Numbered from the stretch's first letter, positions 2,362 to 47,429 are shown. The stretch is 64,000 nt of DNA from an uncultured Methanosarcinales archaeon (GCA_964534665.1 CAZHRT010000002.1:42231-106230), one strand, 5' to 3'. Program-made: numbers and translations. Notes: generated from the sequence alone by a model not told the origin.

Positions 2362-4251
<1,890 letters not shown>

Positions 4252-19613: not shown

Positions 19614-20821
19614 ATCAATCCTTTAGGTTCTTTAGAATAAATAATAGGTTTTTTCTTTAACTTCTCAATCTTATCAGTTATTATCCAGCTCTGTTTTAAC
19701 TCATCAGATGTTGTAAACAATGTTTTATCTCCTTTAATAACATCTGAAAGTAATCTTTGGTACGCTTCAATAGTGTTAGGTCCAAACTTGCAAGTATGAC
19801 AAAATTGCATTTCAACAGGTTCAATTCTTCTTTCATCTGTTAATGTGTTTAAATCAAAAATAATGTCTTGTTTTGGCTGAATATTAATTATTAACTTATT
19901 AGATTTAACAAACGGGTTACAATAAAGCTTACAAAATGTTTTTTTAAATTCTATTTCAACGTAAGCTTGTTTTTTCTTAAGTTTCTTACCTGTTTTTAAC
20001 AAGATTGGAGTACCTTTCCATCTTTTTGCATTACATACCAATTTAACTTCTGCATAAGTTTCAATATTTGATTTAATCTTATAACCCTTATACTGTCCTG
20101 TTATAACTTTTGAAGGTTTTATACATTTTAAAATTTTAACTTTTTCATTGTGTACATCTACCGATTGCAAAGTTTTAGGCGGTTCCATCAAAACTAATGA
20201 AGCAATTTGCAAAAGATGTGATTGTATCATGTCTCTTATTGCACCAGCTTTATCATAATATTCTAAACGTTGTTCAACACCAATATTTTCTTCAGATACA
20301 ATATGTATGTGATTGATAAATTTATTATTCCAAACATTCTCAAATAACGGATTTGAAAATCTTATACCTAAAATATTTTGAACTGTTTGCTTAGCTAAGT
20401 AATGATCAATCCTGTATATGTTCTTATCAGCAAAAACCGATTTAATGGATTTATCTAACTTATTTGAAGAAGCTAGACTATGTCCAAACGGTTTTTCAAA
20501 TACCACTTTAGCATTTTTAAAACGTTTAAGTTGTTTAACAATTATTGGCATAAACTCATAACTTACAGCAAGATAAAATACAGGATTTTTAACTTTTAAA
20601 TTTCTTAAAAAATCTTTATCTTTAAAATCTGCTTTGTAATAAGAAAGATTGTTAAGAAACTTTTTACTAACTTTAGATCCTTTTTCAACAAACTTACGAA
20701 ATTCTTTATTATTAAGATTTTTTCTACCTATTCCAATAACTTTAGTATTTAATTTATCTAAAGCAGTATAAAGTTTTCTCTTTGCTAGGTCGCCTGTTGC
20801 TCCAAATATTACAAATGTCAT
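19607..20821 (-). CDS. zwf: glucose-6-phosphate 1-dehydrogenase
   Basis: FGATGDLAKRKLYTAL NADP site, IYRIDHYLAKQ active-site motif. Confidence 0.8.
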   Translation of the reverse strand: MTFVIFGATGDLAKRKLYTALDKLNTKVIGIGRKNLNNKEFRKFVEKGSKVSKKFLNNLSYYKADFKDKDFLRNLKVKNPVFYLAVSYEFMPIIVKQLKRFKNAKVVFEKPFGHSLASSNKLDKSIKSVFADKNIYRIDHYLAKQTVQNILGIRFSNPLFENVWNNKFINHIHIVSEENIGVEQRLEYYDKAGAIRDMIQSHLLQIASLVLMEPPKTLQSVDVHNEKVKILKCIKPSKVITGQYKGYKIKSNIETYAEVKLVCNAKRWKGTPILLKTGKKLKKKQAYVEIEFKKTFCKLYCNPFVKSNKLIINIQPKQDIIFDLNTLTDERRIEPVEMQFCHTCKFGPNTIEAYQRLLSDVIKGDKTLFTTSDELKQSWIITDKIEKLKKKPIIYSKEPKGLIH

Positions 20822-21510
20822 TTTAAGTTTGTTAATACATAATGATTTTTTATTTTATTAATTAATTTAACAGGACATTGGTTTATTGATAACTTATTAT
20901 TTTGATATCTCTTCAAAGCATCTCTTTTATCTTCATCAATAAATAATACTATTGCAGTATTAGCTTGCAAAAACAATTTTCTTGAACCAGTCATCCTTTC
21001 TGGCGGTGGTTTAGGTGAATCATCCATTGTAATAAACTGTTTAGTTATATTTTTAACAGAATGATGCTCTGGGTAAAGTGCACCTACATGTCCATCTTCA
21101 CCTACACCAAAAATAACTATATCAAATCCTCCAAACTCTTTAAGTTCTTTAGTATAAGTCTTAACACCTTTATCTTTTGCTTTAGTATTAAGATTAAATG
21201 AATGGATATTTGATTTAGATATCTTCTTTTGTTTGATTAATATTGAAATAAAACTATCATTTGCTAACTTATAATTTGAATCTTTACTATTATGTGTAAC
21301 TAATCTGTCATCAACCCAGAAAATATGAATTTTTTCCCATGGCATATTCTTTGCTAATTTAAAATAATGAAATAATTCTTTGACACTTCTTCCACCAGGT
21401 ATTCCTAATACAACTTTATCTTTCTTTTTTAACATTTCTTTTATAGTTCTAATTATAATATATATAGAATGTTTAGCAATAACTTTCTTATCTTGATAAT
21501 ACAGTTTCAT
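20818..21510 (-). CDS. pgl: 6-phosphogluconolactonase
   Basis: LGIPGGRSV, IFGVGEDGHVGALYP. Confidence 0.75.
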   Translation of the reverse strand: MKLYYQDKKVIAKHSIYIIIRTIKEMLKKKDKVVLGIPGGRSVKELFHYFKLAKNMPWEKIHIFWVDDRLVTHNSKDSNYKLANDSFISILIKQKKISKSNIHSFNLNTKAKDKGVKTYTKELKEFGGFDIVIFGVGEDGHVGALYPEHHSVKNITKQFITMDDSPKPPPERMTGSRKLFLQANTAIVLFIDEDKRDALKRYQNNKLSINQCPVKLINKIKNHYVLTNLK

Positions 21511-22400
21511 TTTGGTTGTTTATGTCCTCCAAAACCAAACCTTAGAGATTGTACAACTTTCCCTTGATATCTTTTTGATTTCTTTGACTTAATCCTAGCT
21601 TTAACACTATCTTCAATCACTTGTACAGGAACTTTAAGTTCTTTTGCAGTCTTAATTGTCCATTCACCTTCTCCAGATAAACCAACAACACCATTATAAC
21701 CTTTTAATGCCTTAGAACTCTTGTAAGCATCTCTTGCAAGTTCAATTAACCAAGACCTTATTACAGAACCATTTGCCCAAACATCACACAACTTTTCTTT
21801 ATCTGGATTAAACTTAGATTTTTCAATAACTTCCATTCCTTCACCAATAGCCTGCATCATACCATACTCAATTCCATTATGCACCATCTTAACAAAATGT
21901 CCTGCACCTGGCTTTCCAAAATAACCATAACCTTTCTTTACACTTAAATCATTAAACAACTTTTCAGTTTTATTATAAGCTGTTAAATCACCACCAATCA
22001 TAAAATTAGCACCATTCCTAGCTCCAGAAATTCCACCAGATGTTCCAACATCCAAAAACTTTATTCCTTTTTTGTTTAATAGTGTAGCATGTTTTATACT
22101 ATCTTTATAGAATGAATTTCCACCATCAATTACAATATCTCCTTTTCTAAGATAAGGAATAATTGATTTTAAAGTAGCATCAGTTGCTTTACCAGCAGTA
22201 ACCATCAGCCAAATAACTTTATTTTTGCCTAATTTCTTCATTAATTCTTCAATAGAATACGCAGTGTCAATTTTATACTTTTTAATCTTATCAACTTTTT
22301 CTTTTGAACGATTATAAGCTATAACTTTATGTTTATGATTTTTAGCATTCAAAGCTAGATTAAAACCCATCTTTCCTAAACCAATAATTCCAAATCGCAT
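21507..22400 (-). CDS. gnd: 6-phosphogluconate dehydrogenase, short (~300 aa) decarboxylating form
   Basis: MRFGIIGLGKMGFNLA Rossmann, GAGHFVKMVHNGIEYGMMQAIGEG. Confidence 0.8.
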   Translation of the reverse strand: MRFGIIGLGKMGFNLALNAKNHKHKVIAYNRSKEKVDKIKKYKIDTAYSIEELMKKLGKNKVIWLMVTAGKATDATLKSIIPYLRKGDIVIDGGNSFYKDSIKHATLLNKKGIKFLDVGTSGGISGARNGANFMIGGDLTAYNKTEKLFNDLSVKKGYGYFGKPGAGHFVKMVHNGIEYGMMQAIGEGMEVIEKSKFNPDKEKLCDVWANGSVIRSWLIELARDAYKSSKALKGYNGVVGLSGEGEWTIKTAKELKVPVQVIEDSVKARIKSKKSKRYQGKVVQSLRFGFGGHKQPK

Positions 22401-22874: not shown

Positions 22875-23108
22875 ATGGTATCAGCAACTCAAGTATTATT
22901 TATTGCAGGTATAACAAACTTAATCTTTCTAGTACTTGTTGCTTTAACATGCAGATGTATAACAGGCTTTAAGTTTGGTATTAAATGGTTGCAAAAATCA
23001 AAATTCAAGAAATTATATGATTGGCATTGTTATTACTGGATTGGTTTTTTTGTTTCAGTTATAATTCATACATTTTTAGCATTTTATTTATTCGGGTGGC
23101 CCTCTTAG
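22875..23108 (+). CDS. small two-TM membrane protein
   Basis: 77 aa, two hydrophobic helices. Confidence 0.35.
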   Translation: MVSATQVLFIAGITNLIFLVLVALTCRCITGFKFGIKWLQKSKFKKLYDWHCYYWIGFFVSVIIHTFLAFYLFGWPS

Positions 23109-23117
23109 GTGATTAAT

Positions 23118-23561
23118 ATGGAAAAGAAATTTTGGAGATGTAATGTTTGCAATGATGTGCATTATGGTAATTTAGGACCAATAATTTGTCCAACATGTGC
23201 AGCTGAAAACGCTTATTGCCAGATTGATGAAAATGAAGCTAATAATATAATTTTCGGCAAAGTAACAAAAGAGAATCAAACTTCTAAAGAACAAATCATG
23301 GAATGGTGGAAAACATTTACTGAAAAAAGCCAATTTAAGTTAAATCCTGATAATAAAATTGTAGAAATGGTAGCAACCGGTGTTTTAAGAAATGAACTTA
23401 AACACGGTCTTAAGATGTGCCCTTGCAGGCTACCAGATGGTACAAGGGAACGAGATCTTACATTAATCTGTCCTTGCAATTTTAAGTTACATGAATCATG
23501 GAAAAAAAGGGGAAGTTGCCATTGCAATCTTTTCCATAAATCAAAACAAATTTTGAGGTGA
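23118..23561 (+). CDS. rubredoxin-domain / ferredoxin-thioredoxin-reductase catalytic-subunit-like fusion (ferredoxin:disulfide reductase-like)
   Basis: N-term WRCNVCN...CPTCAAE rubredoxin knuckles; C-term CPCRLP...ICPCNF...SCHCNLF = FTR CPC..CPC..CHC signature; start moved to ATG 9 nt after AGGTGA (ORF track GTG at 23109 lies inside the SD). Confidence 0.7.
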   Translation: MEKKFWRCNVCNDVHYGNLGPIICPTCAAENAYCQIDENEANNIIFGKVTKENQTSKEQIMEWWKTFTEKSQFKLNPDNKIVEMVATGVLRNELKHGLKMCPCRLPDGTRERDLTLICPCNFKLHESWKKRGSCHCNLFHKSKQILR

Positions 23562-23567
23562 AATAAA

Positions 23568-24077
23568 ATGAAATGGTTAATTAGTTTATTAGTTATTTTT
23601 TTAATTGCATGTTCAACACAACCGGTTGAGGTTAAAGATGTTTCAGCATCAAGTATTGATTGGAGAGATGTTGAATTTAAAGATGTTTTAACAGATCAAA
23701 CTTTTAAGATAAATGATTTAGATAAACCTATTTTAATTGAAACTTTTGCAGTTTGGTGTCCAACTTGTCGAAAACAGCAAGAGGAAATCCAAAAACTTCA
23801 TCTAGATGTAGGGGATTCTGTAACATCTGTTTCACTTGATGTGGACCCATCAGAAGATGAAGCAAAAGTCATTAAGCATGCTAACACTTATGGTTTTGAC
23901 TGGCTTTGGTCAGTGTCACCAGGTGAAGCAACAAAATCTTTGATTGACGAATTTGGGATTCAAGTTGCTAATGCACCTTCTGCACCAATTATATTAGTAT
24001 GTGAAACTAAAACTAAACTTTTAGATTTTGGTGTTAAATCAGTTGAAGAACTAAAACAAGAGGTAGAGGCCTGTTAA
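23568..24077 (+). CDS. thioredoxin-fold lipoprotein (TlpA/ResA-like thiol-disulfide oxidoreductase)
   Basis: lipobox LIACS, FAVWCPTCRKQ CxxC active site; GAGGTGA SD. Confidence 0.7.
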   Translation: MKWLISLLVIFLIACSTQPVEVKDVSASSIDWRDVEFKDVLTDQTFKINDLDKPILIETFAVWCPTCRKQQEEIQKLHLDVGDSVTSVSLDVDPSEDEAKVIKHANTYGFDWLWSVSPGEATKSLIDEFGIQVANAPSAPIILVCETKTKLLDFGVKSVEELKQEVEAC

Positions 24078-24745
24078 TGGTTTTTCTTGTTGAATTACTT
24101 TTATCTTTTGGACTAGGTTTTGCAGCAAACCTAAACCCCTGTGTTTTACCTTTATACCCAGGGTTTCTTTCTTATATTGCTAATAAACCAGAAGTTGCAG
24201 AAAAGAAAAATTTTACAAGAACTGCAGGTTTCTATGTTTTAGCAGGCTTAATGATTTTTATGATTCTAATTGGAGTAATAACAGCTTCTTTAGGATTATC
24301 AATTGGCAATTTTGTAAGCACTGTTTCCCCAATAGCTTTTGGCATCTTAGTAATCCTAGGTGTATTATTGTTATTTAACATTGACCTTACAAAATTACTT
24401 CCACAATGGAAAACACCTGTATTAAAAAATCCTTATACCTCAGCATTAATCTTTGGTTTTTTATATGGTCCAATTGTCATTCCTTGTAATGCTCCTTTAG
24501 TTTTTGCAGTATTTGCTTTCTCAGCTAGCGTTACTGGTTTTCTTAACACATTTGCTTTGTTCATGGCATTTGGTTTAGGTCTTGGAATACCTTTAGTAAT
24601 CATAGGTTTCCTTTCAGCTGCAAAAGGCTCTTGGCTTATCAAGAAGTTTGTTAAATATCACACATTGATAAATCGTATTGCAGGCACATTACTTATAATA
24701 TTAGGATTATATGAATTAATTTTTGTATTTAGAATATTTGGGTGA
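24077..24745 (+). CDS. ccdA: CcdA/DsbD-family transmembrane thiol-disulfide electron transporter
   Basis: NLNPCVLPLYPGF (TM1 Cys) and VIPCNAPLVF (TM4 Cys), 6 TM. Confidence 0.65.
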   Translation: MVFLVELLLSFGLGFAANLNPCVLPLYPGFLSYIANKPEVAEKKNFTRTAGFYVLAGLMIFMILIGVITASLGLSIGNFVSTVSPIAFGILVILGVLLLFNIDLTKLLPQWKTPVLKNPYTSALIFGFLYGPIVIPCNAPLVFAVFAFSASVTGFLNTFALFMAFGLGLGIPLVIIGFLSAAKGSWLIKKFVKYHTLINRIAGTLLIILGLYELIFVFRIFG

Positions 24746-25734
24746 AAAAATTGTACAGTACAAAAGATAGATGCTTGGTTGTACAGATGTTGCTCTTAGA
24801 TCAATGTAATCTTAGATGTAAGCACTGCTATGTAGGCGATCAAAAATTTACACCAAGACAGATGCCTACACTTGACACTGTTAAAGATTGGGTTGATAAA
24901 ATAGAGACATTTTCTAAAGAAAACCAGTTTAAATCAACCAGTCTGCATCTATCTGGTGGAGAGCCTTTTGCACGTCTTGATATCTTTGAGATATTAGATT
25001 ATTGTAAATCTAAAAACATCTCAACATTTATTCTTAGCAACGGAACATTGTTTACAAAAGAAACAGCCGACAAATTAATGTCAAGAGGAATTAAAAATAT
25101 TCAGTTCAGTATTGAAGGCCCAGAAGAAATTAATGATAATATTCGTGGAAAAGGAGTTTATCAAAAAGTTATGAATGCAATAAAGATTGCAAAAGAACAA
25201 GGTATGGGTGTAACTGTTAGTATAACACTAAGCAAAAATAATATTTCAATAATTAAAGATTTTATTAAAGAATTAGATCATCTTAATTTAATGTTTCATA
25301 TTAGAGAATTAATGCCTATTGGTGACGGTGCTCATATGAATATAATTACACCTAATCAAAGAAAGGATTTTTTTGAATTTTCTAGAGATTATTCAGGAAA
25401 ATCAATTGTTAAACCAGAAGATCCAATACAATGTAGTATAAAAGATGGAAAAGTTAGAAAAGGTGGTTGTGTTGCAATGAGAAACCATTTTTGCATAGAT
25501 GTTGATGGTTCTATATTTCCATGCGGATTATTACGTGAAAACATAGGAAATATCAATAATTTACAAAAAGTTTATAATTCTGAAATGTCTAGAAAGCTTA
25601 GAAACCGTGAATTAGAAGGAAAATGCGGTGAATGTGACATGTCAGATAGTTGCGGGGGTTGTCGTGCCTATGCTTTTTATGAAAGCAAAAGCATGTTAGC
25701 AGAAGACAACAGATGTTTGCTAGAAACTATGTGA
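24742..25734 (+). CDS. radical SAM enzyme with C-terminal SPASM/twitch Cys cluster
   Basis: CNLRCKHCY CxxxCxxC; C-term CGECDMSDSCGGCRAY; GTG start overlapping upstream stop (GTGA). Confidence 0.75.
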   Translation: MKKLYSTKDRCLVVQMLLLDQCNLRCKHCYVGDQKFTPRQMPTLDTVKDWVDKIETFSKENQFKSTSLHLSGGEPFARLDIFEILDYCKSKNISTFILSNGTLFTKETADKLMSRGIKNIQFSIEGPEEINDNIRGKGVYQKVMNAIKIAKEQGMGVTVSITLSKNNISIIKDFIKELDHLNLMFHIRELMPIGDGAHMNIITPNQRKDFFEFSRDYSGKSIVKPEDPIQCSIKDGKVRKGGCVAMRNHFCIDVDGSIFPCGLLRENIGNINNLQKVYNSEMSRKLRNRELEGKCGECDMSDSCGGCRAYAFYESKSMLAEDNRCLLETM

Positions 25735-25744
25735 GGTGAAATAA

Positions 25745-25804
25745 ATGGGTGATGAAGGTTCCTGCGGTGGCGGTGGAAGTTGCGGCGGAGACAAAAAAGA
25801 ATAG
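25745..25804 (+). CDS. 19-aa Cys/Gly-rich peptide MGDEGSCGGGGSCGGDKKE (candidate precursor peptide)
   Basis: own translation; GAGGTGA SD 5 nt upstream overlapping rSAM stop; followed by T-tract. Confidence 0.4.
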   Translation: MGDEGSCGGGGSCGGDKKE

Positions 25805-25831
25805 GTGAAAAATTTCATCTAAAATTGATTA

Positions 25832-25851
25832 TTATTTTTTATTTTTTTATT
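25832..25851 (+). terminator. T-tract (archaeal-type) terminator after peptide gene
   Basis: TTATTTTTTATTTTTTTATT immediately before next gene SD. Confidence 0.4.
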
Positions 25852-25862
25852 GAGGTGAAAAC

Positions 25863-26489
25863 ATGAAAAAATATTTATTAATTTTAATTATATTACTAGT
25901 TGGATGTGAAGCTTATGTTAGTTCTCAAGATGTAGTCCCACTTGATTCTGTTGAGATAAGGGAATACAAAGGAAAGGATTTATCCAGTGTTAATGATTTT
26001 AGAGAAAATTCAATTAAGGGTCCACAATATATTGATCTTGATAACTATGAACTTAAAATTAGTGGCTTAGTAGAAGAAGAAAAAACTTACACTTATGAAG
26101 AAGTTCTAGCACACCAATCATATTCAAAAGTTGTAACACTATACTGTGTTGAAGGTTGGGACGCAACTATTCTTTGGGAAGGTGTTTTAGTTAAAGACCT
26201 TATTGGCGATATAAATCCAGAAGCTAACACAATAATCTTCTCAGCATATGATGGTTACACTACTGCTTTACCCTTAGATTACATACTTGATAATGATATT
26301 TTATTAGCTTACAAGATGAATAATATAACAATGCCACCCGAACGCGGATATCCTTTTGAATTAGTTGCAGAAGATAAAGCTGGTTACAAATGGATAAAAT
26401 GGGTAACAGAGATTGAATTAAGTAATGATGAAAACTATCTAGGATACTGGGAAAAACGTGGTTGGGACAATGATGCTAATTTAGAATAA
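25863..26489 (+). CDS. lipoprotein with molybdopterin-oxidoreductase-like (sulfite oxidase/YedY-MsrP family) domain
   Basis: lipobox LLVGC; LYCVEGWDATILWEGVLVKDLI resembles Oxidored_molyb Cys-ligand region; assignment by memory only. Confidence 0.4.
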   Translation: MKKYLLILIILLVGCEAYVSSQDVVPLDSVEIREYKGKDLSSVNDFRENSIKGPQYIDLDNYELKISGLVEEEKTYTYEEVLAHQSYSKVVTLYCVEGWDATILWEGVLVKDLIGDINPEANTIIFSAYDGYTTALPLDYILDNDILLAYKMNNITMPPERGYPFELVAEDKAGYKWIKWVTEIELSNDENYLGYWEKRGWDNDANLE

Positions 26490-26499
26490 AGGTGATAAT

Positions 26500-27513
26500 A
26501 TGAAAAAAATAATAAGTTTAATTGCATTGTTTTTATTGATTGGATGTTCCCCAGTAGTACAAGATACAACAACTCCAGAAAGTGTTGAAGAATTAGACAT
26601 GTCTCAACCACCTTTTGCAGTATTACCAGCAGAAGCAGGTGAATCACCAAAGATCATGATGACTGATGATGGTATAAAATATATTATTGATCCAGATAAA
26701 ATTCGTGGTGGTGGCCCACCTAAAGATGGCATACCATCAATTGATAATCCTAAATACGTTACTGTTTCTAAGGCAGATGAATGGATCGAAGATAATGAAC
26801 TTGTTCTAGCAATAATTTACAATGGTGTTAAAAGAGTTTATCCATTACAAATATTAGTTTGGCATGAGATTGTTAATGATTTTATTGAAAACGATCCAAT
26901 CTTAATCACATATTGTCCTTTATGCGGTTCTGGAATTGCATATGAAAGAAAAATCAATAATCTGGAAGTTGAATTTGGAACCTCTGGTAAATTATACAAC
27001 TCTAATCTTGTTATGTATGATAGAAAAACAGACACTTACTGGAGCCAGATTGATGGATTAGCAATTGTTGGAGAACTTACAGGCTATCAACTTACAGCAA
27101 TATCAATTGATACAGTTGTTTGGAAAGATTGGAAAGCAGCTCATCCTGATTCAGAAGTTCTTAGCCAAGATACAGGACATTCTAGAAATTATGGCAGGGA
27201 TCCTTATGGTAATTATTATGAAGATAGCTTTCTTTTCTTCCCTGTTGAAGCTGAAGACAACCGTATCCATGCAAAAACAGTAATTTTTGGAATTAACGTT
27301 GACGGTGTTTACAAAGCCTACAAAGAAGAAGATTTATTGACAAGCGATATCATAGACCTTGTTAATGATATTAATCTCATAGTTGAACGAGATGATGTAG
27401 GGATTGTTAAGGTAACTAACACAGATAGTGGAGAAGAAATTGTTAAAGAAAGAGATTTTTGGTTTGCATGGTATGCATTCCATCCAGACACTTTGTTATA
27501 TGAGGTGAAATAA
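26500..27513 (+). CDS. lipoprotein, hypothetical
   Basis: lipobox LLIGCS; 337 aa; CPLCGSG motif; no family recognised. Confidence 0.45.
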   Translation: MKKIISLIALFLLIGCSPVVQDTTTPESVEELDMSQPPFAVLPAEAGESPKIMMTDDGIKYIIDPDKIRGGGPPKDGIPSIDNPKYVTVSKADEWIEDNELVLAIIYNGVKRVYPLQILVWHEIVNDFIENDPILITYCPLCGSGIAYERKINNLEVEFGTSGKLYNSNLVMYDRKTDTYWSQIDGLAIVGELTGYQLTAISIDTVVWKDWKAAHPDSEVLSQDTGHSRNYGRDPYGNYYEDSFLFFPVEAEDNRIHAKTVIFGINVDGVYKAYKEEDLLTSDIIDLVNDINLIVERDDVGIVKVTNTDSGEEIVKERDFWFAWYAFHPDTLLYEVK

Positions 27514-27514
27514 A

Positions 27515-27985
27515 ATAAAATATATATTAATTGTAATAACCATATTATTACTTATTGGATGTACAGCTGAACAAGCAGATGTCCAGCCAGATGTAACAGA
27601 TACAATTGCAGATCTGCCGCCTGTTAATCCAACTCAAGAAGAGCCTAATACAGAAGAACCTATTGAAGAACCAGGACCAGAAAGCCTGCCACCTGAAAAA
27701 GGAGTAGCAGAAGATCTAGAACCAGACGCAGTAACAGAATCCACAGTCAATATTATTACAGTTGAAGAACTAGCATTACACGATAATGAAGAAGATTGCT
27801 GGATTGTTTATGAAGGCAGCATTTTTGATTATACAGGTGCTGGATTTCATCCAGCTATGGCAAAAGTATTTTGGAAATATTGTGGCGATGAAACTGGTTT
27901 TGAAGAAGGTGCAAAAGATAGACATTCAAATAGTGGTGTAGAAAGAGTTGAGAATTATGGTGAATATATAGGTGAACTAGAATGA
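27515..27985 (+). CDS. lipoprotein with cytochrome b5-like heme/steroid-binding domain; no canonical start codon
   Basis: own translation of frame after TGA at 27506: ...ILLLIGCTAEQADV...HDNEEDCWIVYEGSIFDYTGAGFHPA; no ATG/GTG/TTG between upstream stop and lipobox (candidate ATA/ATT start or frameshift). Confidence 0.35.
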   Translation: MKYILIVITILLLIGCTAEQADVQPDVTDTIADLPPVNPTQEEPNTEEPIEEPGPESLPPEKGVAEDLEPDAVTESTVNIITVEELALHDNEEDCWIVYEGSIFDYTGAGFHPAMAKVFWKYCGDETGFEEGAKDRHSNSGVERVENYGEYIGELE

Positions 27986-28125
27986 ACATGAAAGAAAATG
28001 ATGATATTACGGAAGAAAAAGAAGATGCAAAACAAAGATGTAAAGTTTGTGGCAAAGACTCTGGTGAAGACGGCCTTCACAAATGTGGGTGTTGTGGTCA
28101 ATGTTGTGAGTGTGGTGAGAAATGA
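27982..28125 (+). CDS. 47-aa Cys-rich peptide (metallothionein-like), ATGA-coupled on both sides
   Basis: own translation MNMKENDDITEEKEDAKQRCKVCGKDSGEDGLHKCGCCGQCCECGEK; AGGTGA 7 nt upstream. Confidence 0.4.
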   Translation: MNMKENDDITEEKEDAKQRCKVCGKDSGEDGLHKCGCCGQCCECGEK

Positions 28126-28928
28126 AAATATTTATTGATAGTGCAGATATTGATGAAATAGAAAAAGCCTATTCTTATGGTGTATTAGATGGTGTAACAA
28201 CAAACCCTAGCTTAATAAAAAAAGCTTCACAAAAACATAAAGTAAAAGATATGAATTCTTACATCAAGAAAATTCTTAAAGTTGCTCGTGGTACACCTGT
28301 AAGTTTAGAAGTTATTGGAAGCACGTATGATTCTATGGTTAAAGAAGGTAAAAAACTTTACAAGATGTTTAACCCGGTTGCAAAGAACGTTTACATAAAA
28401 GTTCCAGTAAATCCAGTTTTTGGTGATAAAATTAACCATTTTGATGGTTTAAAAGCTATTCAAGCATTTTCAAAAGCCAAGATTCCTGTAAACTGCACTT
28501 TAATCTTTACACCTGAACAAGCATTGTTAGCTGCTAAAGCAGGCGCTGCTTTTGTAAGCCCCTTTGCAGGGCGTATTGATGATTATATAAGAAAAGATAA
28601 TGGCAGAAATTTCAACAAAACAGATTATTTTCCAGAAGATGGTATAGAATCAAGAAAAGGCCTTTTGAATGATAACGGAATAGTTTCTGGTGTAGATTTA
28701 ATTGCACAAATAGTAGAAATATTTGATAATTACCAATTAAATACAGAAGTTTTAGCAGCTTCTATTAGAAATTCAAGACAAGCAAGAGAATCAGCTTTAG
28801 CAGGAGCAAACATCGCTACACTTCCTTTATCTGTAATTGAAGAATTACTTATACATCCAAAAACAATTGAAGGTATGGCAAAATTCACAGAAGATATTGT
28901 TCCTGAATATGCTAAATTGTTAAAATAG
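28122..28928 (+). CDS. tal: transaldolase / fructose-6-phosphate aldolase family
   Basis: MKIFIDSADIDEI...GVTTNPSLI signature. Confidence 0.75.
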   Translation: MKIFIDSADIDEIEKAYSYGVLDGVTTNPSLIKKASQKHKVKDMNSYIKKILKVARGTPVSLEVIGSTYDSMVKEGKKLYKMFNPVAKNVYIKVPVNPVFGDKINHFDGLKAIQAFSKAKIPVNCTLIFTPEQALLAAKAGAAFVSPFAGRIDDYIRKDNGRNFNKTDYFPEDGIESRKGLLNDNGIVSGVDLIAQIVEIFDNYQLNTEVLAASIRNSRQARESALAGANIATLPLSVIEELLIHPKTIEGMAKFTEDIVPEYAKLLK

Positions 28929-43292: not shown

Positions 43293-43311
43293 CATCTCAT
43301 AGGTGGTTAAA

Positions 43312-43425
43312 ATGGAATACAAATGTGATTGCGGAAATGTCTGTAATGTTGAAAAACAAACAGAAGGATTTGGTGATGATAGTATAACCATTAAGTGTAC
43401 TTGTTGTGGTGCAGAATTACAATAG
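43312..43425 (+). CDS. 37-aa Cys-rich peptide MEYKCDCGNVCN...KCTCCGAELQ
   Basis: own translation; AGGTGG SD 5 nt upstream. Confidence 0.35.
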   Translation: MEYKCDCGNVCNVEKQTEGFGDDSITIKCTCCGAELQ

Positions 43426-44077: not shown

Positions 44078-44662
44078 ATGAAAATAATTAATAAAAGAAA
44101 AACAAATTATGATGTGAACTCTATTTTTCCAAAGAGGTGGTCTCCTAGAGCCCTTTCAGGAGAAAAGATAACAAAAACACAGTTAATGAAACTATTTGAA
44201 GCTGCACGTTGGTCTCCTTCATCTTATAACAACCAGTCATGGAGATTTATTTATGCAATGAAAGGAACTAAACAATTCCAGACATTGTTTAAAATATTAG
44301 CACCACCAAACCAAGTATGGTGTAAAAATGCTTCAGTTTTAATTGTAATTGTATCAAAGAAAACATTTGATTATAATAAAAAACCATCAATTACACATTC
44401 TTTTGATACAGGCGCAGCTTGGATGAGTTTAGCTTTGCAAGCTTCTATGTCTGGTTTAGTAGCGCATGGTATGCAAGGGTTAGATTATGTTAAAGCACAA
44501 AAACAACTTAACATACCTAAAGATTATCAAGTTGAAGCAATGTGTGCAATTGGAAAAAAAGGCAAAAAATCCTTACTTCCAAAAGAAATGCAAGCAATAG
44601 AAATGCAATCAGACAGGAAACCAATAACCAAGATTGCCTTTGAAGGCAAATTTAAAAGGTGA
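44078..44662 (+). CDS. nitroreductase-family protein
   Basis: RWSPRALSGEKI...AARWSPSSYNNQSWRF. Confidence 0.7.
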   Translation: MKIINKRKTNYDVNSIFPKRWSPRALSGEKITKTQLMKLFEAARWSPSSYNNQSWRFIYAMKGTKQFQTLFKILAPPNQVWCKNASVLIVIVSKKTFDYNKKPSITHSFDTGAAWMSLALQASMSGLVAHGMQGLDYVKAQKQLNIPKDYQVEAMCAIGKKGKKSLLPKEMQAIEMQSDRKPITKIAFEGKFKR

Positions 44663-44666
44663 TAAA

Positions 44667-45230
44667 ATGGTAAATATAAATGATAAAGCACCTGAATTTA
44701 CAGAAGATGCTTTAATAAACAATGAAATTAAAAAAATTAGTCTATCAGATTATAAAGGTAAATGGGTAGTATTATTCTTCTATCCAGCAGATTTCACATT
44801 TGTCTGTCCAACAGAACTTGGATCTTTAGCTGATAACTATGATACTATTAAGTCAATGAATACAGATGTTATTAGTGTAAGCACAGACACAGCTTTTGTA
44901 CATAAAGCCTGGCACGACCATTCAGATACAATCAAAAAAATTAAGTTTCCAATGTTAGCAGATCCTACAAGAAGAGTATGTAAATCATATTGGACATTAA
45001 TTGAGAATGAAGGCCTTTCACTCAGAGCAACTTTCATCATTGATCCAGAAGGAATTGTAAAAGCCTTTGAATTTAATGACTTAAGTATTGGAAGAAGTAG
45101 TGAAGAAATTATCAGAAAACTTCAAGCTGCACAATTTGTGGCAGAACATGGTGATCAAGTGTGTCCAATGAACTGGAAACCCGGTGAAAAAACATTAACA
45201 CCTGGATTAGATTTAATAGGTAAGATATAA
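44667..45230 (+). CDS. peroxiredoxin (AhpC/2-Cys Prx type)
   Basis: FFYPADFTFVCPTEL peroxidatic Cys motif; start at ATG after AGGTGA (track starts 44634). Confidence 0.8.
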   Translation: MVNINDKAPEFTEDALINNEIKKISLSDYKGKWVVLFFYPADFTFVCPTELGSLADNYDTIKSMNTDVISVSTDTAFVHKAWHDHSDTIKKIKFPMLADPTRRVCKSYWTLIENEGLSLRATFIIDPEGIVKAFEFNDLSIGRSSEEIIRKLQAAQFVAEHGDQVCPMNWKPGEKTLTPGLDLIGKI

Positions 45231-45236
45231 TAACAA

Positions 45237-45280
45237 AAACTTTACAATTAAGATTATAAATTATAATTAATGTAAAGTTT
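45237..45280. promoter_or_regulatory. near-perfect 14-bp inverted repeat AAACTTTACAATTAA-N15-TTAATGTAAAGTTT between prx and grx/trxB operon
   Basis: read directly; one bulged A. Confidence 0.45.
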
Positions 45281-45357
45281 GTGGAATTGAAAAATATAAT
45301 GATTTTTCAATAAAATATATAAAGAAAGAGAACAAAAACGACTATGAGGTGTTTATT

Positions 45358-45591
45358 ATGGGAAATATAACTGTATATTCAACACCAACTTGCCCTTGGT
45401 GTAAGAAAGTTAAAGAATGGCTAAAAGAAAAGAAAATTGAGTTTAAAGATATTGATGTATCAGAAAACGAAGATGCTAGAAATGTAATGGTTGAAAAATC
45501 AGGACAAATGGGTGTTCCAGTTATTGATGCAAACGGCACAGTTATAGTTGGCTTTGATGTCGATAAACTAGAAAAAGCAATCAAATCATAA
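45358..45591 (+). CDS. glutaredoxin-like / NrdH-like small redoxin
   Basis: YSTPTCPWCKKVKEWL CPxC; GAGGTG SD. Confidence 0.7.
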   Translation: MGNITVYSTPTCPWCKKVKEWLKEKKIEFKDIDVSENEDARNVMVEKSGQMGVPVIDANGTVIVGFDVDKLEKAIKS

Positions 45592-45592
45592 G

Positions 45593-46531
45593 ATGTATGA
45601 TATAGCAATAATCGGTAGCGGCGTATCAGGCTTAGGTGCTGCACTTTATGCAGGTCGATTTGAACTAAAAACTATTGTAATAGGTGATAAATCAGGGGGT
45701 ACAATCATCTTAACAGATGAAATTGCCAATTATCCTGGTTTTTCTAACATTTCTGGTATTGACCTTGCAGACAAACTAAAAAAACATGTGCAAGATTATG
45801 ATGTAGAATTTCTAGATTCTAAAGTAAAAGATATTAAGAAAGGAAAAACATGTTTTGGTTTATCTACAGTTAATAAGAACATCAGAACAAAAACAATAAT
45901 CTTCGCTACAGGAACTGAATGGAAAAAATTAAAAGTTCCAGGAGAGTCAGAATTCACAGGTAAAGGCGTACATTATTGTGCACTATGCGATGGTGCATTC
46001 TATAAAAATAAAATTGTTGCAGTTGTTGGTGGTTCTGATTCAGCTGCAAAAGAAGCACTTTTATTAACAAAATATGCTAAAAAAGTCTACATCATCTATC
46101 GTGGTGAAAAGATTAAACCTGAACCAATCAATGAAAAGAAAGTTGCAGCAAATAAACAAATAGAAATTATCAATTATACTAATGTTACTAAAATAAAAGG
46201 GGATAAGTTTGTTTCTTCAATTATTTTAGATAAAGAATACAAAGGCAATAAAGAATTGAAGCTTGATGGGTTATTTGTTGATATTGGTCATATTGCATTA
46301 TCAAAAGAAGCTAAAGATCTTGGAGTAAAACTAAATGAAAAAGGCGAGATAATAATCAACTGTGATGGTAATACAAACATTCCCGGAGTTTTTGGTGCAG
46401 GTGATGTTTGCAATACAAAATTCAAGCAAGCAATAACTGGTGTTGCTGAAGGTGTTAGTGCAACTTATTCAGCATATACTTATGTAACAAACACAAAAAT
46501 ATTATGTACAGACGATGAGGTAGAAAAATGA
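45593..46531 (+). CDS. trxB: thioredoxin-disulfide reductase
   Basis: FAD site YDIAIIGSGVSGLGAA, redox CALCDGAFY, NAD site VVGGSDSAAKEAL. Confidence 0.85.
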   Translation: MYDIAIIGSGVSGLGAALYAGRFELKTIVIGDKSGGTIILTDEIANYPGFSNISGIDLADKLKKHVQDYDVEFLDSKVKDIKKGKTCFGLSTVNKNIRTKTIIFATGTEWKKLKVPGESEFTGKGVHYCALCDGAFYKNKIVAVVGGSDSAAKEALLLTKYAKKVYIIYRGEKIKPEPINEKKVAANKQIEIINYTNVTKIKGDKFVSSIILDKEYKGNKELKLDGLFVDIGHIALSKEAKDLGVKLNEKGEIIINCDGNTNIPGVFGAGDVCNTKFKQAITGVAEGVSATYSAYTYVTNTKILCTDDEVEK

Positions 46532-47049
46532 TAAAAAAGAAAATTATAGATGCGATAAATAAACAAATTAATGCTGAGTTTTACTCTTCATTTTTATATT
46601 TGTCAATGGCAGCATATTTTGAAGATCAAAATCTTCCTGGCATGGCAAATTGGGAAAGGGTTCAAGCTAAAGAAGAAACAACACATGCAATGAAATTTTA
46701 TAATTTCTTATCTGAACGTGGTGGACGTATTGTCCTTGATACTATTGCAAAACCTTCATCAGACTGGAAAAGTCCATTAGACGTTTTTCAAACTGGATTA
46801 GCTCACGAACAAAAAGTAACAGCAATGATAAACACTTTAATGGACTTAGCTGTTGCTGAAAAAGATCATGCAACTATCTCAGTACTTCAATGGTTTGTTG
46901 ATGAACAAGTTGAAGAAGAAGCAAACGCAGATGCAATTGTTAAAAAGCTAAAACTTGCAGGAAATATGGCTGGTGCATTATTTATGATTGATAAAGAACT
47001 TGAAGCAAGAGTTTTTGTTGATGAAACTCAAGTTGGGGCAGAAAAATGA
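46528..47049 (+). CDS. ftn: ferritin (non-haem, FtnA-like)
   Basis: INAEFYSSFLYLSMAAYF...EETTHAMKFYNFL aligns with E. coli FtnA ferroxidase-site helices. Confidence 0.75.
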   Translation: MIKKKIIDAINKQINAEFYSSFLYLSMAAYFEDQNLPGMANWERVQAKEETTHAMKFYNFLSERGGRIVLDTIAKPSSDWKSPLDVFQTGLAHEQKVTAMINTLMDLAVAEKDHATISVLQWFVDEQVEEEANADAIVKKLKLAGNMAGALFMIDKELEARVFVDETQVGAEK

Positions 47050-47429
47050 CTAAATTACATGAAATCTATAAATGCAGTGTTTGTGGTAATGTTGTATCAG
47101 TTATGGTTCTTGGTGGCGGTACACTAGTTTGCTGTGGCAAAGAAATGGATTTGCAAGAGGAAAAAACTGGTGAACAAGAAGGTAATGAAAAACACGTGCC
47201 AGTTGTTTCAGTTGAATCTGGTCAAGTTAGTGTTAATGTGGGCTCTGTTGATCATCCAATGGAAGAAGACCATTATATTGTTTTAATACAATTGGTTAAA
47301 GATGGAGAAGTAATTGCTGGCAAACGCTTAAAACCAGGTGATAAACCAAATGCAACTTTCTGTTTAGACAGTATAGAAGGCGTTAAAGCAAGAATCTTTT
47401 GCAACCTGCATGGTGTCTGGGTTAATTAG
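47046..47429 (+). CDS. dfx: desulfoferrodoxin-type superoxide reductase
   Basis: N-term CSVCGN...LVCCGKEM desulforedoxin site; C-term EKHVPV...H...CNLHGVW centre-II ligands. Confidence 0.8.
   Translation: MTKLHEIYKCSVCGNVVSVMVLGGGTLVCCGKEMDLQEEKTGEQEGNEKHVPVVSVESGQVSVNVGSVDHPMEEDHYIVLIQLVKDGEVIAGKRLKPGDKPNATFCLDSIEGVKARIFCNLHGVWVN

Follow-up and report, generated by a model that had tools for sequence, protein, structure and literature searches.

A family of cysteine-rich, putatively metal-binding microproteins encoded near thioredoxin reductase-like genes in Woesearchaeota-type DPANN archaea

A gene for a cysteine-rich microprotein of 47 amino acids (aa) was identified in a stretch of 64,000 nucleotides (nt) from an uncultured Methanosarcinales archaeon (GCA_964534665.1 CAZHRT010000002.1:42231-106230; the whole stretch analysed is hereinafter referred to as the window). 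The open reading frame (ORF; Table 1) is a real protein-coding gene, because its reading frame and its pattern of cysteine residues were kept in relatives, and it very probably encodes a metal-binding protein. The microprotein and these relatives, all 47-55 aa long, form a family from Woesearchaeota-type DPANN archaea that appears not to have been described before. The best reading of the sequences is that a zinc-ribbon-like pair of knuckles is fused to a metallothionein-like cysteine cluster, which would make the product a redox-linked metal-thiolate microprotein. We assign a probability of about 60% to this reading as a whole, including the link to redox stress.

The ORF had been picked out in an earlier reading of the DNA made without database searches (hereinafter referred to as the sequence-only reading) as a translationally coupled small gene, and as such it proved genuine; the translation was reproduced exactly. 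The ORF starts in an ATGA (gaATGAac, 27982-27985) that contains the stop codon of the cytochrome-b5 lipoprotein gene upstream, and it ends in a second ATGA (aaATGAaa, 28122-28125) that contains the start codon of the transaldolase gene downstream; the Shine-Dalgarno (SD)-like AGGTGA was found where that reading had placed it. The CC and CxC pairs were likewise present, whereas the count of 10 cysteine residues had to be corrected to 8 (positions 20, 23, 35, 37, 38, 41, 42, and 44), plus His33. The gene had also been described as absent from the ORF track, but public annotations do contain it: of 28 indexed blocks, at least 24 contigs that were read carry a call for a 47-aa "hypothetical protein". 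In the four peptide-bearing loci returned, the DNA was 100% identical to the window, and these loci therefore carried no polymorphism information and gave no ratio of nonsynonymous to synonymous substitutions (dN/dS).

Cysteine accounted for 17% of the protein and for about 30% of its core, and all eight residues fell within 25 positions (20-44). The fraction of 17% was the highest among the 231 six-frame ORFs of at least 40 aa in the window, in which cysteine made up 1.1% of the codons of the long ORFs and the G+C content was 30.6%. A codon-usage model trained on the 40 longest ORFs of the window gave log-odds of +20.4 bits in the microprotein frame, whereas the remaining five frames scored from -24 to -48 bits. 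When the 144 nt were shuffled (mononucleotide shuffles, n = 200,000), 1.2% of the shuffles were open at all, and none was open with eight or more cysteine residues. A chance, untranslated ORF in the 136-nt spacer between two real genes would be in accordance with the short length and with the lack of a family-database match. However, nine homologues (47-67% identity) kept the frame and the cysteine pattern while their cysteine codons changed synonymously, the coding potential was positive in this frame only, an SD was present, the ATGA coupling was exact, and no shuffle reproduced the ORF; the conservation and the coding statistics effectively refute this explanation.

The homologues were found by an exhaustive phmmer search against 1.84 billion representative proteins, which returned four small proteins (47-55 aa, 49-58% identity to the microprotein), and by a profile search, which gave nine clusters including the query (query E = 8e-16). 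A cluster look-up added P0014, so that the family comprises about 10 clusters, with nine homologues besides the query, all of 47-55 aa. A word-indexed search with the single peptide found the identical sequence only; the family surfaced in the exhaustive HMMER search. P0011 and P0014 were annotated as Candidatus Woesearchaeota. The sequence-only reading had proposed to look for the cysteine pattern in related genomes and had named loss of the reading frame in close relatives as the finding that would speak against the gene; in all nine homologous small ORFs the cysteine positions and the frame were kept. None of 599 pattern matches from a family-alignment search of metagenomes was confirmed by tblastn, and the peptide had no tblastn match in a phage genome collection.

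The alignment defined a family core, R-C-K-[IVM]-C-G-x7-9-C-x2-C-x-C-C-x2-C-C-x-C, which follows a charged N-terminal tail of variable length. The query lies within the family as defined by a length of 47-55 aa and the pattern R-C-x2-C-G-x7-9-(C-x2|H-x)-C-x-C-C-x2-C-C-x-C. Invariant columns were R19, C20, C23, G24, E29, C35, C37, C38, C41, C42, and C44. At the conserved positions the cysteine codons were TGT in the window and mostly TGC in the relatives, and these synonymous differences show that the conservation of cysteine acts at the protein level. Purine-rich SD sequences (aaggtga, agaggt, aaggag) preceded the homologues at comparable spacing.

The core can be divided into a first knuckle (CxxCG), a degenerate second knuckle (HxCG), and a tail (CC-x2-CC-x-C). 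In most relatives, the second knuckle reads C(P)xCG, vs. HxCG in the window protein. The third cysteine was absent from the window protein and from P0012, in which H-x-C stands in place of C-x2-C through a one-residue deletion. P0012 and P0014, the two closest relatives, belong to the same 90%-identity cluster and are more than 90% identical, yet they have H-I-C and C-S-R-C, respectively, at this site; histidine can thus take the position of the third cysteine ligand. The microprotein has no aromatic residues (0-2 across the family members), no signal peptide, and no hydrophobic segment, and its pI is 4.8. Judged from these features, it is presumably cytoplasmic and would fold in a metal-dependent manner.

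Searches of Pfam, NCBIfam, and PHROG yielded no matching model for the query (Pfam, E ≤ 0.1) or for its relatives. P0013 gave a weak, sub-threshold match to Pfam Zn_ribbon_3 (E = 4e-4). Profile matches in the PDB were faint, covered one knuckle only, and were to C2H2 fingers and rubredoxins (E = 0.001-0.6). In AlphaFold2 (AF2) models based on the nine-sequence alignment, the core consisted of loops only, with a predicted local distance difference test (pLDDT) score of 76-85; the mean score was 68 (query) and 72 (P0010). The P0010 model also had a helix of low confidence (residues 2-15), which was absent from that of the query. Two fold searches returned no significant match of any kind. In its first half, the core resembles a knuckle pair of the zinc-ribbon/rubredoxin type, and a metal-binding or redox role, which the sequence-only reading had offered as a candidate, is the most reasonable interpretation of the sequence.

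The description "metallothionein-like" from the same reading stood in part. The microprotein resembles metallothioneins (SmtA/BmtA, MymT, and the animal beta-domain) in its composition, being small, rich in cysteine arranged as CC, CxC, and CxxC, and free of aromatic residues, and the family has ZIP and ferritin genes as neighbours. In contrast, neither the query nor the relatives matched Metallothio_Pro or another metallothionein profile, the search of seven relatives against Pfam gave no metallothionein match at E ≤ 10, and the first four ligands of the family are arranged in zinc-ribbon fashion. Nine ligands is also the number in the M3Cys9 cluster of the animal metallothionein beta-domain, and in SmtA histidine substitutes for a cysteine ligand. 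"Metallothionein-like" is accordingly a statement of resemblance and not of membership, and the cluster is predicted.

The gene orders around the relatives (Table 1) suggest a link of the family to thiol redox chemistry. A gene for a thioredoxin reductase (TrxR)-like flavoprotein lay no more than two genes from the microprotein gene in seven of the nine contexts, directly 5' in P0009, P0010, P0011, P0012, and P0014 and with a single gene in between in P0006 and P0007. A ferredoxin gene was located directly 3' in P0006, P0009, and P0010 and one gene further in P0011 and P0014, and genes for ZIP, EncFtn/rubrerythrin, and desulfoferrodoxin usually came next after it. The TrxR-like proteins encoded in these contexts kept the CATCD active site and GxGxxA, and the NADPH motif HRRxxxR was absent. 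Absence of HRRxxxR is the criterion that separates non-NADPH, probably ferredoxin-dependent TrxBs from NADPH-dependent thioredoxin reductases (NTRs) (PMC10880999; see also PMC12796991), and the TrxR-like flavoprotein encoded beside the family members is probably ferredoxin-dependent. With TrxR-like protein, glutaredoxin (Grx)/thioredoxin (Trx), ferredoxin, ZIP, ferritin/rubrerythrin, and superoxide reductase (SOR) as neighbours, a role in thiol redox and oxidative stress is preferred.

In the proposed mechanism, the two CxxC(G) knuckles would form a zinc-ribbon/rubredoxin-like site, and the knuckles and the adjoining CC-x2-CC-x-C would jointly enclose two to three ions of Zn or Fe within a thiolate cluster, which could be M3L9 as in the metallothionein beta-domain (a comparison from general knowledge) or two coupled sites. 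Without a hydrophobic core, the protein would fold only around metal. Nine conserved ligands in 25 residues, the lack of a hydrophobic core, and the tolerated exchange of cysteine for histidine are better explained by such a cluster than by one structural site. On exposure to oxidants, the thiolates would be attacked and metal would be released; re-reduction of the thiolates would then fall to the Trx/Grx system. The ancestral home of the gene would be between the HRRxxxR-less TrxR-like flavoprotein gene and that of a small ferredoxin, in an operon also containing genes for glutaredoxin, the ZIP metal transporter, ferritin/rubrerythrin, and superoxide reductase; in the present genome, the gene has evidently been relocated and is now translationally coupled to the cytochrome-b5 lipoprotein and transaldolase genes. 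Specific action as a metallothionein-like buffer or switch is a tentative proposal, to which we give less than even odds.

Several points weigh against this interpretation. The immediate neighbours differ in the window (cytochrome b5, transaldolase) and in P0013 (transketolase, FTR-B), and therefore the link to TrxR is not obligatory. Only about 10 clusters make up the family, and its gene neighbourhoods were read from nine contexts, some of them on short contigs. Moreover, association in a neighbourhood cannot separate the roles of metal buffer, electron carrier, and regulator.

The second of these roles would be that of a mini rubredoxin- or desulforedoxin-like Fe(Cys)4 protein, with a centre built from CxxCG plus CxxC or CC, which takes the place of rubredoxin in the oxidative-stress operons of anaerobes and transfers electrons one at a time to SOR and rubrerythrin, the donor being the TrxR-like flavoprotein or ferredoxin. 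The position of the gene between a flavoprotein reductase gene and a ferredoxin gene, close to SOR and rubrerythrin genes, is consistent with such a carrier. The first knuckle and the residues that follow it (EKERCKICGKDxGED) resemble the N-terminus of a rubredoxin (AKWRCKICGYIYDED; PDB E = 0.04-0.6), the CC pair is as in desulforedoxin, and the CxxCG...CCG spacing is reminiscent of YKCSVCG...VCCG in the SOR encoded in the window, the N-terminal domain of which is of the desulforedoxin type. However, the rubredoxin matches covered one knuckle and were not significant, no match to Pfam Rubredoxin or Desulfoferrod_N was obtained even at E ≤ 10, and the fold searches were null. The loop between the knuckles is about 10 residues long in the family vs. 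about 30 in rubredoxin, the aromatic core typical of rubredoxin is absent, and five extra cysteine residues are conserved, so that nine ligands are kept where four would be needed. We consider a carrier of this kind unlikely.

The family can also be compared with the C(P)XCG microproteins, such as HVO_2753 and HVO_0758 of Haloferax volcanii and Brz of Halobacterium (PMC11241148, PMC10716476, PMC6562870, PMC2253796). In H. volcanii such proteins are common and diverse in function, the regulator Brz is also a member of the class (PMC11241148, PMC6562870, PMC2253796), and several predicted members do not bind zinc (PMC11241148). Like these proteins, the family is archaeal, shorter than 70 aa (47 aa in the query), and made of one domain built around CxxCG knuckles, and two motifs were present in six of the 10 members (the second as CPHCG, CPRCG, or CSRCG). 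A structural C(P)XCG zinc finger that binds a protein or nucleic-acid partner, and for example regulates the TrxR/ferredoxin system or transcription, would agree with these features and with a weak match to Brz (E = 0.002) of a second small cysteine-rich protein encoded in the same operons. In contrast, the query has CKVCG only, its second site being H-K-C-G with the first cysteine gone, and lacks a complete second motif. Five further invariant cysteine residues (C-C-x2-C-C-x-C), which a single Zn site would not need, are fused to the second knuckle of the family; no basic surface or DNA-binding features were evident in the query, in line with its acidic pI. Further, no sequence homology was detectable between the family and any described member of the class, and the family differs in its conserved place in the TrxR-ferredoxin operon of DPANN archaea. 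A purely structural finger is thus rated as quite improbable, and the redox-linked metal-thiolate microprotein is retained as the preferred reading.

The second cysteine-rich protein is itself a conserved microprotein of 53-55 aa with 10 cysteine residues (MV.ASVKCPECG...CPKCKKDICGPDGCCITVCKCPC; L218, 3271-3432; L018, 6916-7083). Its gene lies directly 5' of the TrxR-like gene in the Woesearchaeota loci, so that two different cysteine-rich microproteins flank the TrxR-like gene there. Eleven members were found in one 90%-identity cluster, and the Brz match was to its zinc ribbon.

The immediate context of the gene in the window was different. The coupling to the lipoprotein and transaldolase genes, noted in the sequence-only reading, is present in the window but is not conserved. 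Seven loci with transaldolase relatives (38-69% identity) had unrelated genes upstream, and none of the seven had a cysteine-rich ORF there. The two usable loci with cytochrome-b5 relatives (L012 and L013) had small transmembrane ORFs downstream instead of the peptide; one homologue of the cytochrome-b5 neighbour was in Woesearchaeota. The microprotein gene and its two neighbours belong to a packed string of genes on the same strand (22875-28928), with gaps of -4 to +10 nt and one exception of 128 nt. The window also contains an oxidative-stress cluster (Table 1), which is the counterpart of the peptide-bearing operon of the relatives and lacks the peptide gene; in the TrxR-like protein of this cluster, the active site is CALCD, and GxGxxA and HRRxxxR are both missing. 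A ZIP gene is present in the window as well, and the peptide gene is not beside it. Since the Prx-Grx-TrxR-ferritin-SOR cluster lacks the peptide gene, the gene has evidently moved in this genome, to judge by the gene orders, to the end of the packed string of redox genes.

The packed string includes a radical SAM/SPASM gene (24742-25734), and the microprotein could in principle be the precursor of a ribosomally synthesized and post-translationally modified peptide (RiPP) of the SCIFF/ranthipeptide type, with an acidic leader and a cysteine-rich core modified by this enzyme. The size of the microprotein, its charged N-terminal half, and its cysteine-rich C-terminal half recall such precursors, the enzyme is encoded on the same strand 2.2 kb upstream, and it gave sub-threshold matches to ranthipeptide and sactipeptide maturases (PapB model, E = 7e-28, 98 bits vs. 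a cutoff of 340 bits). However, three lipoprotein genes separate the two, and the best matches of the enzyme were TIGR04053 and the heme-b synthase AhbD, which suits the neighbouring heme and molybdenum lipoproteins at least equally well. The microprotein did not match SCIFF (TIGR03973) or another precursor model; among nine members, no NCBIfam precursor model was matched at E ≤ 0.1, apart from a weak, sub-threshold bacteriocin-family match of one member (E = 0.017). A radical SAM/SPASM gene was absent from all the other family loci; the association with a maturase is therefore not conserved, and the RiPP reading, which is very improbable, was rejected.

Some observations concern the neighbouring genes themselves. 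Upstream of its lipobox, the cytochrome-b5 lipoprotein gene lacks each of the start codons ATG, GTG, and TTG; the first canonical start is at 27857, and for this reason public callers report no more than a 42-aa fragment. The SD GAGGTGA (27502-27508), which is strong, is followed 6 nt later by ATA at 27515, which suggests that the gene uses this ATA as its start. A 213-aa public call (P0002), in which TGA is read as Trp and three frames are fused, was dismissed as an artefact. The pair of molybdopterin-oxidoreductase and cytochrome-b5 lipoproteins resembles a split sulfite oxidase, and the genes for the Mo-oxidoreductase, cytochrome b5, a small membrane protein, and FTR-B recur in the Woesearchaeota locus L012. 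On L140, the 500-nt contig of P0012, the gene 3' of the peptide gene (391-498) begins with a lipoprotein signal, LLGCQAPAEQATELQPEV, which loosely resembles the N-terminus of the cytochrome-b5 lipoprotein in the window (LIGCTAEQADVQPDV). As far as this short contig extends, this hints at an intermediate arrangement of TrxR, peptide, and lipoprotein genes.

Genes of the pentose-phosphate pathway flank the redox genes in the window (Table 1), and on L142 the peptide gene directly follows a gene for a transketolase C-terminal domain (1-372). This may be a recurrent tie to the supply of reducing power, or a coincidence. In addition, a further small cysteine-rich ORF (Table 1) was found in an intergenic gap of about 450 nt; it is called in public data as a 37-aa hypothetical protein on 10 contigs. 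Scans of the window for tRNA genes and Rfam families gave no match.

Table 1. Features of the window and gene orders around the family members. Positions are counted from the first letter of the window; PEP, peptide (microprotein) gene.
Feature	Position (nt)	Strand	Description
Cys8His microprotein gene, 47 aa	27982..28125	+	stop included; translation MNMKENDDITEEKEDAKQRCKVCGKDSGEDGLHKCGCCGQCCECGEK
Shine-Dalgarno-like AGGTGA	27970..27975	+	6 nt 5' of ATG
Charged N-terminal tail, residues 1-18	27982..28035	+	MNMKENDDITEEKEDAKQ; K/E/D-rich; length variable in the family (alignment)
Conserved metal-ligand core (predicted), R19-G45	28036..28116	+	R-C-K-V-C-G-x9-H-K-C-G-C-C-G-Q-C-C-E-C-G
Cytochrome-b5-domain lipoprotein gene	27515..27985	+	Pfam Cyt-b5 E = 2e-07; lipobox LLIGC; homologues P0003, P0004
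Transaldolase/fructose-6-phosphate aldolase gene	28122..28928	+	TAL_FSA E = 8e-56; TIGR00875 E = 3e-57
Genes of the packed string	22875..27985		77-aa membrane protein, rubredoxin-FTR-B fusion, TlpA-like thioredoxin lipoprotein, CcdA, radical SAM/SPASM (AhbD/TIGR04053-like), molybdopterin-oxidoreductase lipoprotein (sulfite-oxidase/MsrP family), DUF3179 lipoprotein, cytochrome-b5 lipoprotein
Pentose-phosphate genes	20818..22400, 28122..28928		6-phosphogluconolactonase-like, 6-phosphogluconate dehydrogenase, transaldolase
Oxidative-stress cluster	44078..47429		nitroreductase-like, peroxiredoxin (Prx), glutaredoxin, TrxR-like, ferritin, desulfoferrodoxin; Prx-to-SOR part 44.6-47.4 kb
ZIP gene	6.9-7.6 kb		
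Further small Cys-rich ORF, 37-40 aa, 6 Cys	43303..43425	+	MEYKCDCGNVCNVEKQTEGFGDDSITIKCTCCGAELQ
P0010 (L015)			TrxR-like, PEP, ferredoxin, ZIP, EncFtn/rubrerythrin, desulfoferrodoxin
P0011 (L018)			Grx, 55-aa Cys-rich protein, TrxR-like, PEP, FTR-B, ferredoxin, ZIP, rubrerythrin
P0014 (L218)			PfkB, Grx, 53-aa Cys-rich protein, TrxR-like, PEP, phosphatase, ferredoxin, ZIP, EncFtn, rubrerythrin
P0009 (L141)			TrxR-like, PEP, ferredoxin
P0012 (L140)			TrxR-like, PEP, lipoprotein
P0006 (L019)			TrxR-like, Trx-like, PEP, ferredoxin, ZIP, rubrerythrin, SOR
P0007			rubrerythrin, ferritin, PEP, Grx, TrxR-like, SOR
P0013 (L142)			transketolase C-terminal domain, PEP, FTR-B

A similar motif was found beyond the family. 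A pattern scan of metagenome DNA for C-G-C-C-x2-C-C-[EDKN]-C gave at least 120 loci. Among the matches listed, 19 had ORFs of 40-53 aa with C-x2-C-G six to eight residues upstream, C-x2-C directly before the motif, and an acidic tail. A profile-profile comparison of the family with these metagenome ORFs gave a probability of 96% (E = 1e-9), a value inflated by the C-terminal motif that the search pattern had imposed. The contigs that carry the ORFs have a G+C content of about 57% and a length of about 3 kb, and many, of 2.9-3.05 kb (L022, L032, L042, L045, L050, L058, L087, L095, L096, L110, and L138), have terminal direct repeats of 123-139 nt, which indicates, from the sequences, circular elements of about 2.85 kb. 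These elements share an M15 endolysin-like peptidase, proteins of about 205, 114, 160-170, and 100 aa without family match, and the 40-53-aa peptide with the Cys9 spacing. No replication protein was recognised in them, and their 205-aa protein had no match in the phage genome collection. Further, an 83-aa protein encoded on L166 (IMGVR_UViG_3300033121_000988, 3385-3636, + strand) has C-x2-C-G...C-x2-C-G-C-C-x2-C-C-x-C followed by a second zinc ribbon of the form CxxC...CxxC.

A broader proposal, which we regard as doubtful, is that the microproteins are a new type of archaeal metallothionein-like or redox-active metal-thiolate protein that serves as a dedicated partner of the ferredoxin-dependent TrxR system in DPANN archaea, and that the Cys9 mini-domain is an independent fold, which the circular soil elements (about 2.85 kb) and one or more phage-like contigs also use. 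If this is true, the partner would act as a substrate, as a metal donor or acceptor, or as an electron mediator.

Cysteine-rich metal-binding microproteins are already known as a general kind. In the libraries and papers that could be searched, no description was found of this family, of its Cys9 architecture, or of its place in the TrxR-ferredoxin operon of DPANN archaea, and a literature search for archaeal metallothioneins or small cysteine-rich proteins of Woesearchaeota returned nothing relevant. If a metal-thiolate cluster is bound, these proteins would, to our knowledge, number among the earliest archaeal proteins to be defined as metallothionein-type. Annotation often misses small proteins, and little is understood of the physiology of the uncultivated DPANN archaea. 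At its size, the microprotein could be synthesized chemically and studied by NMR and metal titration at low cost, and the Cys9 family offers a testable candidate for the coupling of thiol redox control, metal handling, and oxygen defence in anaerobes with reduced genomes.

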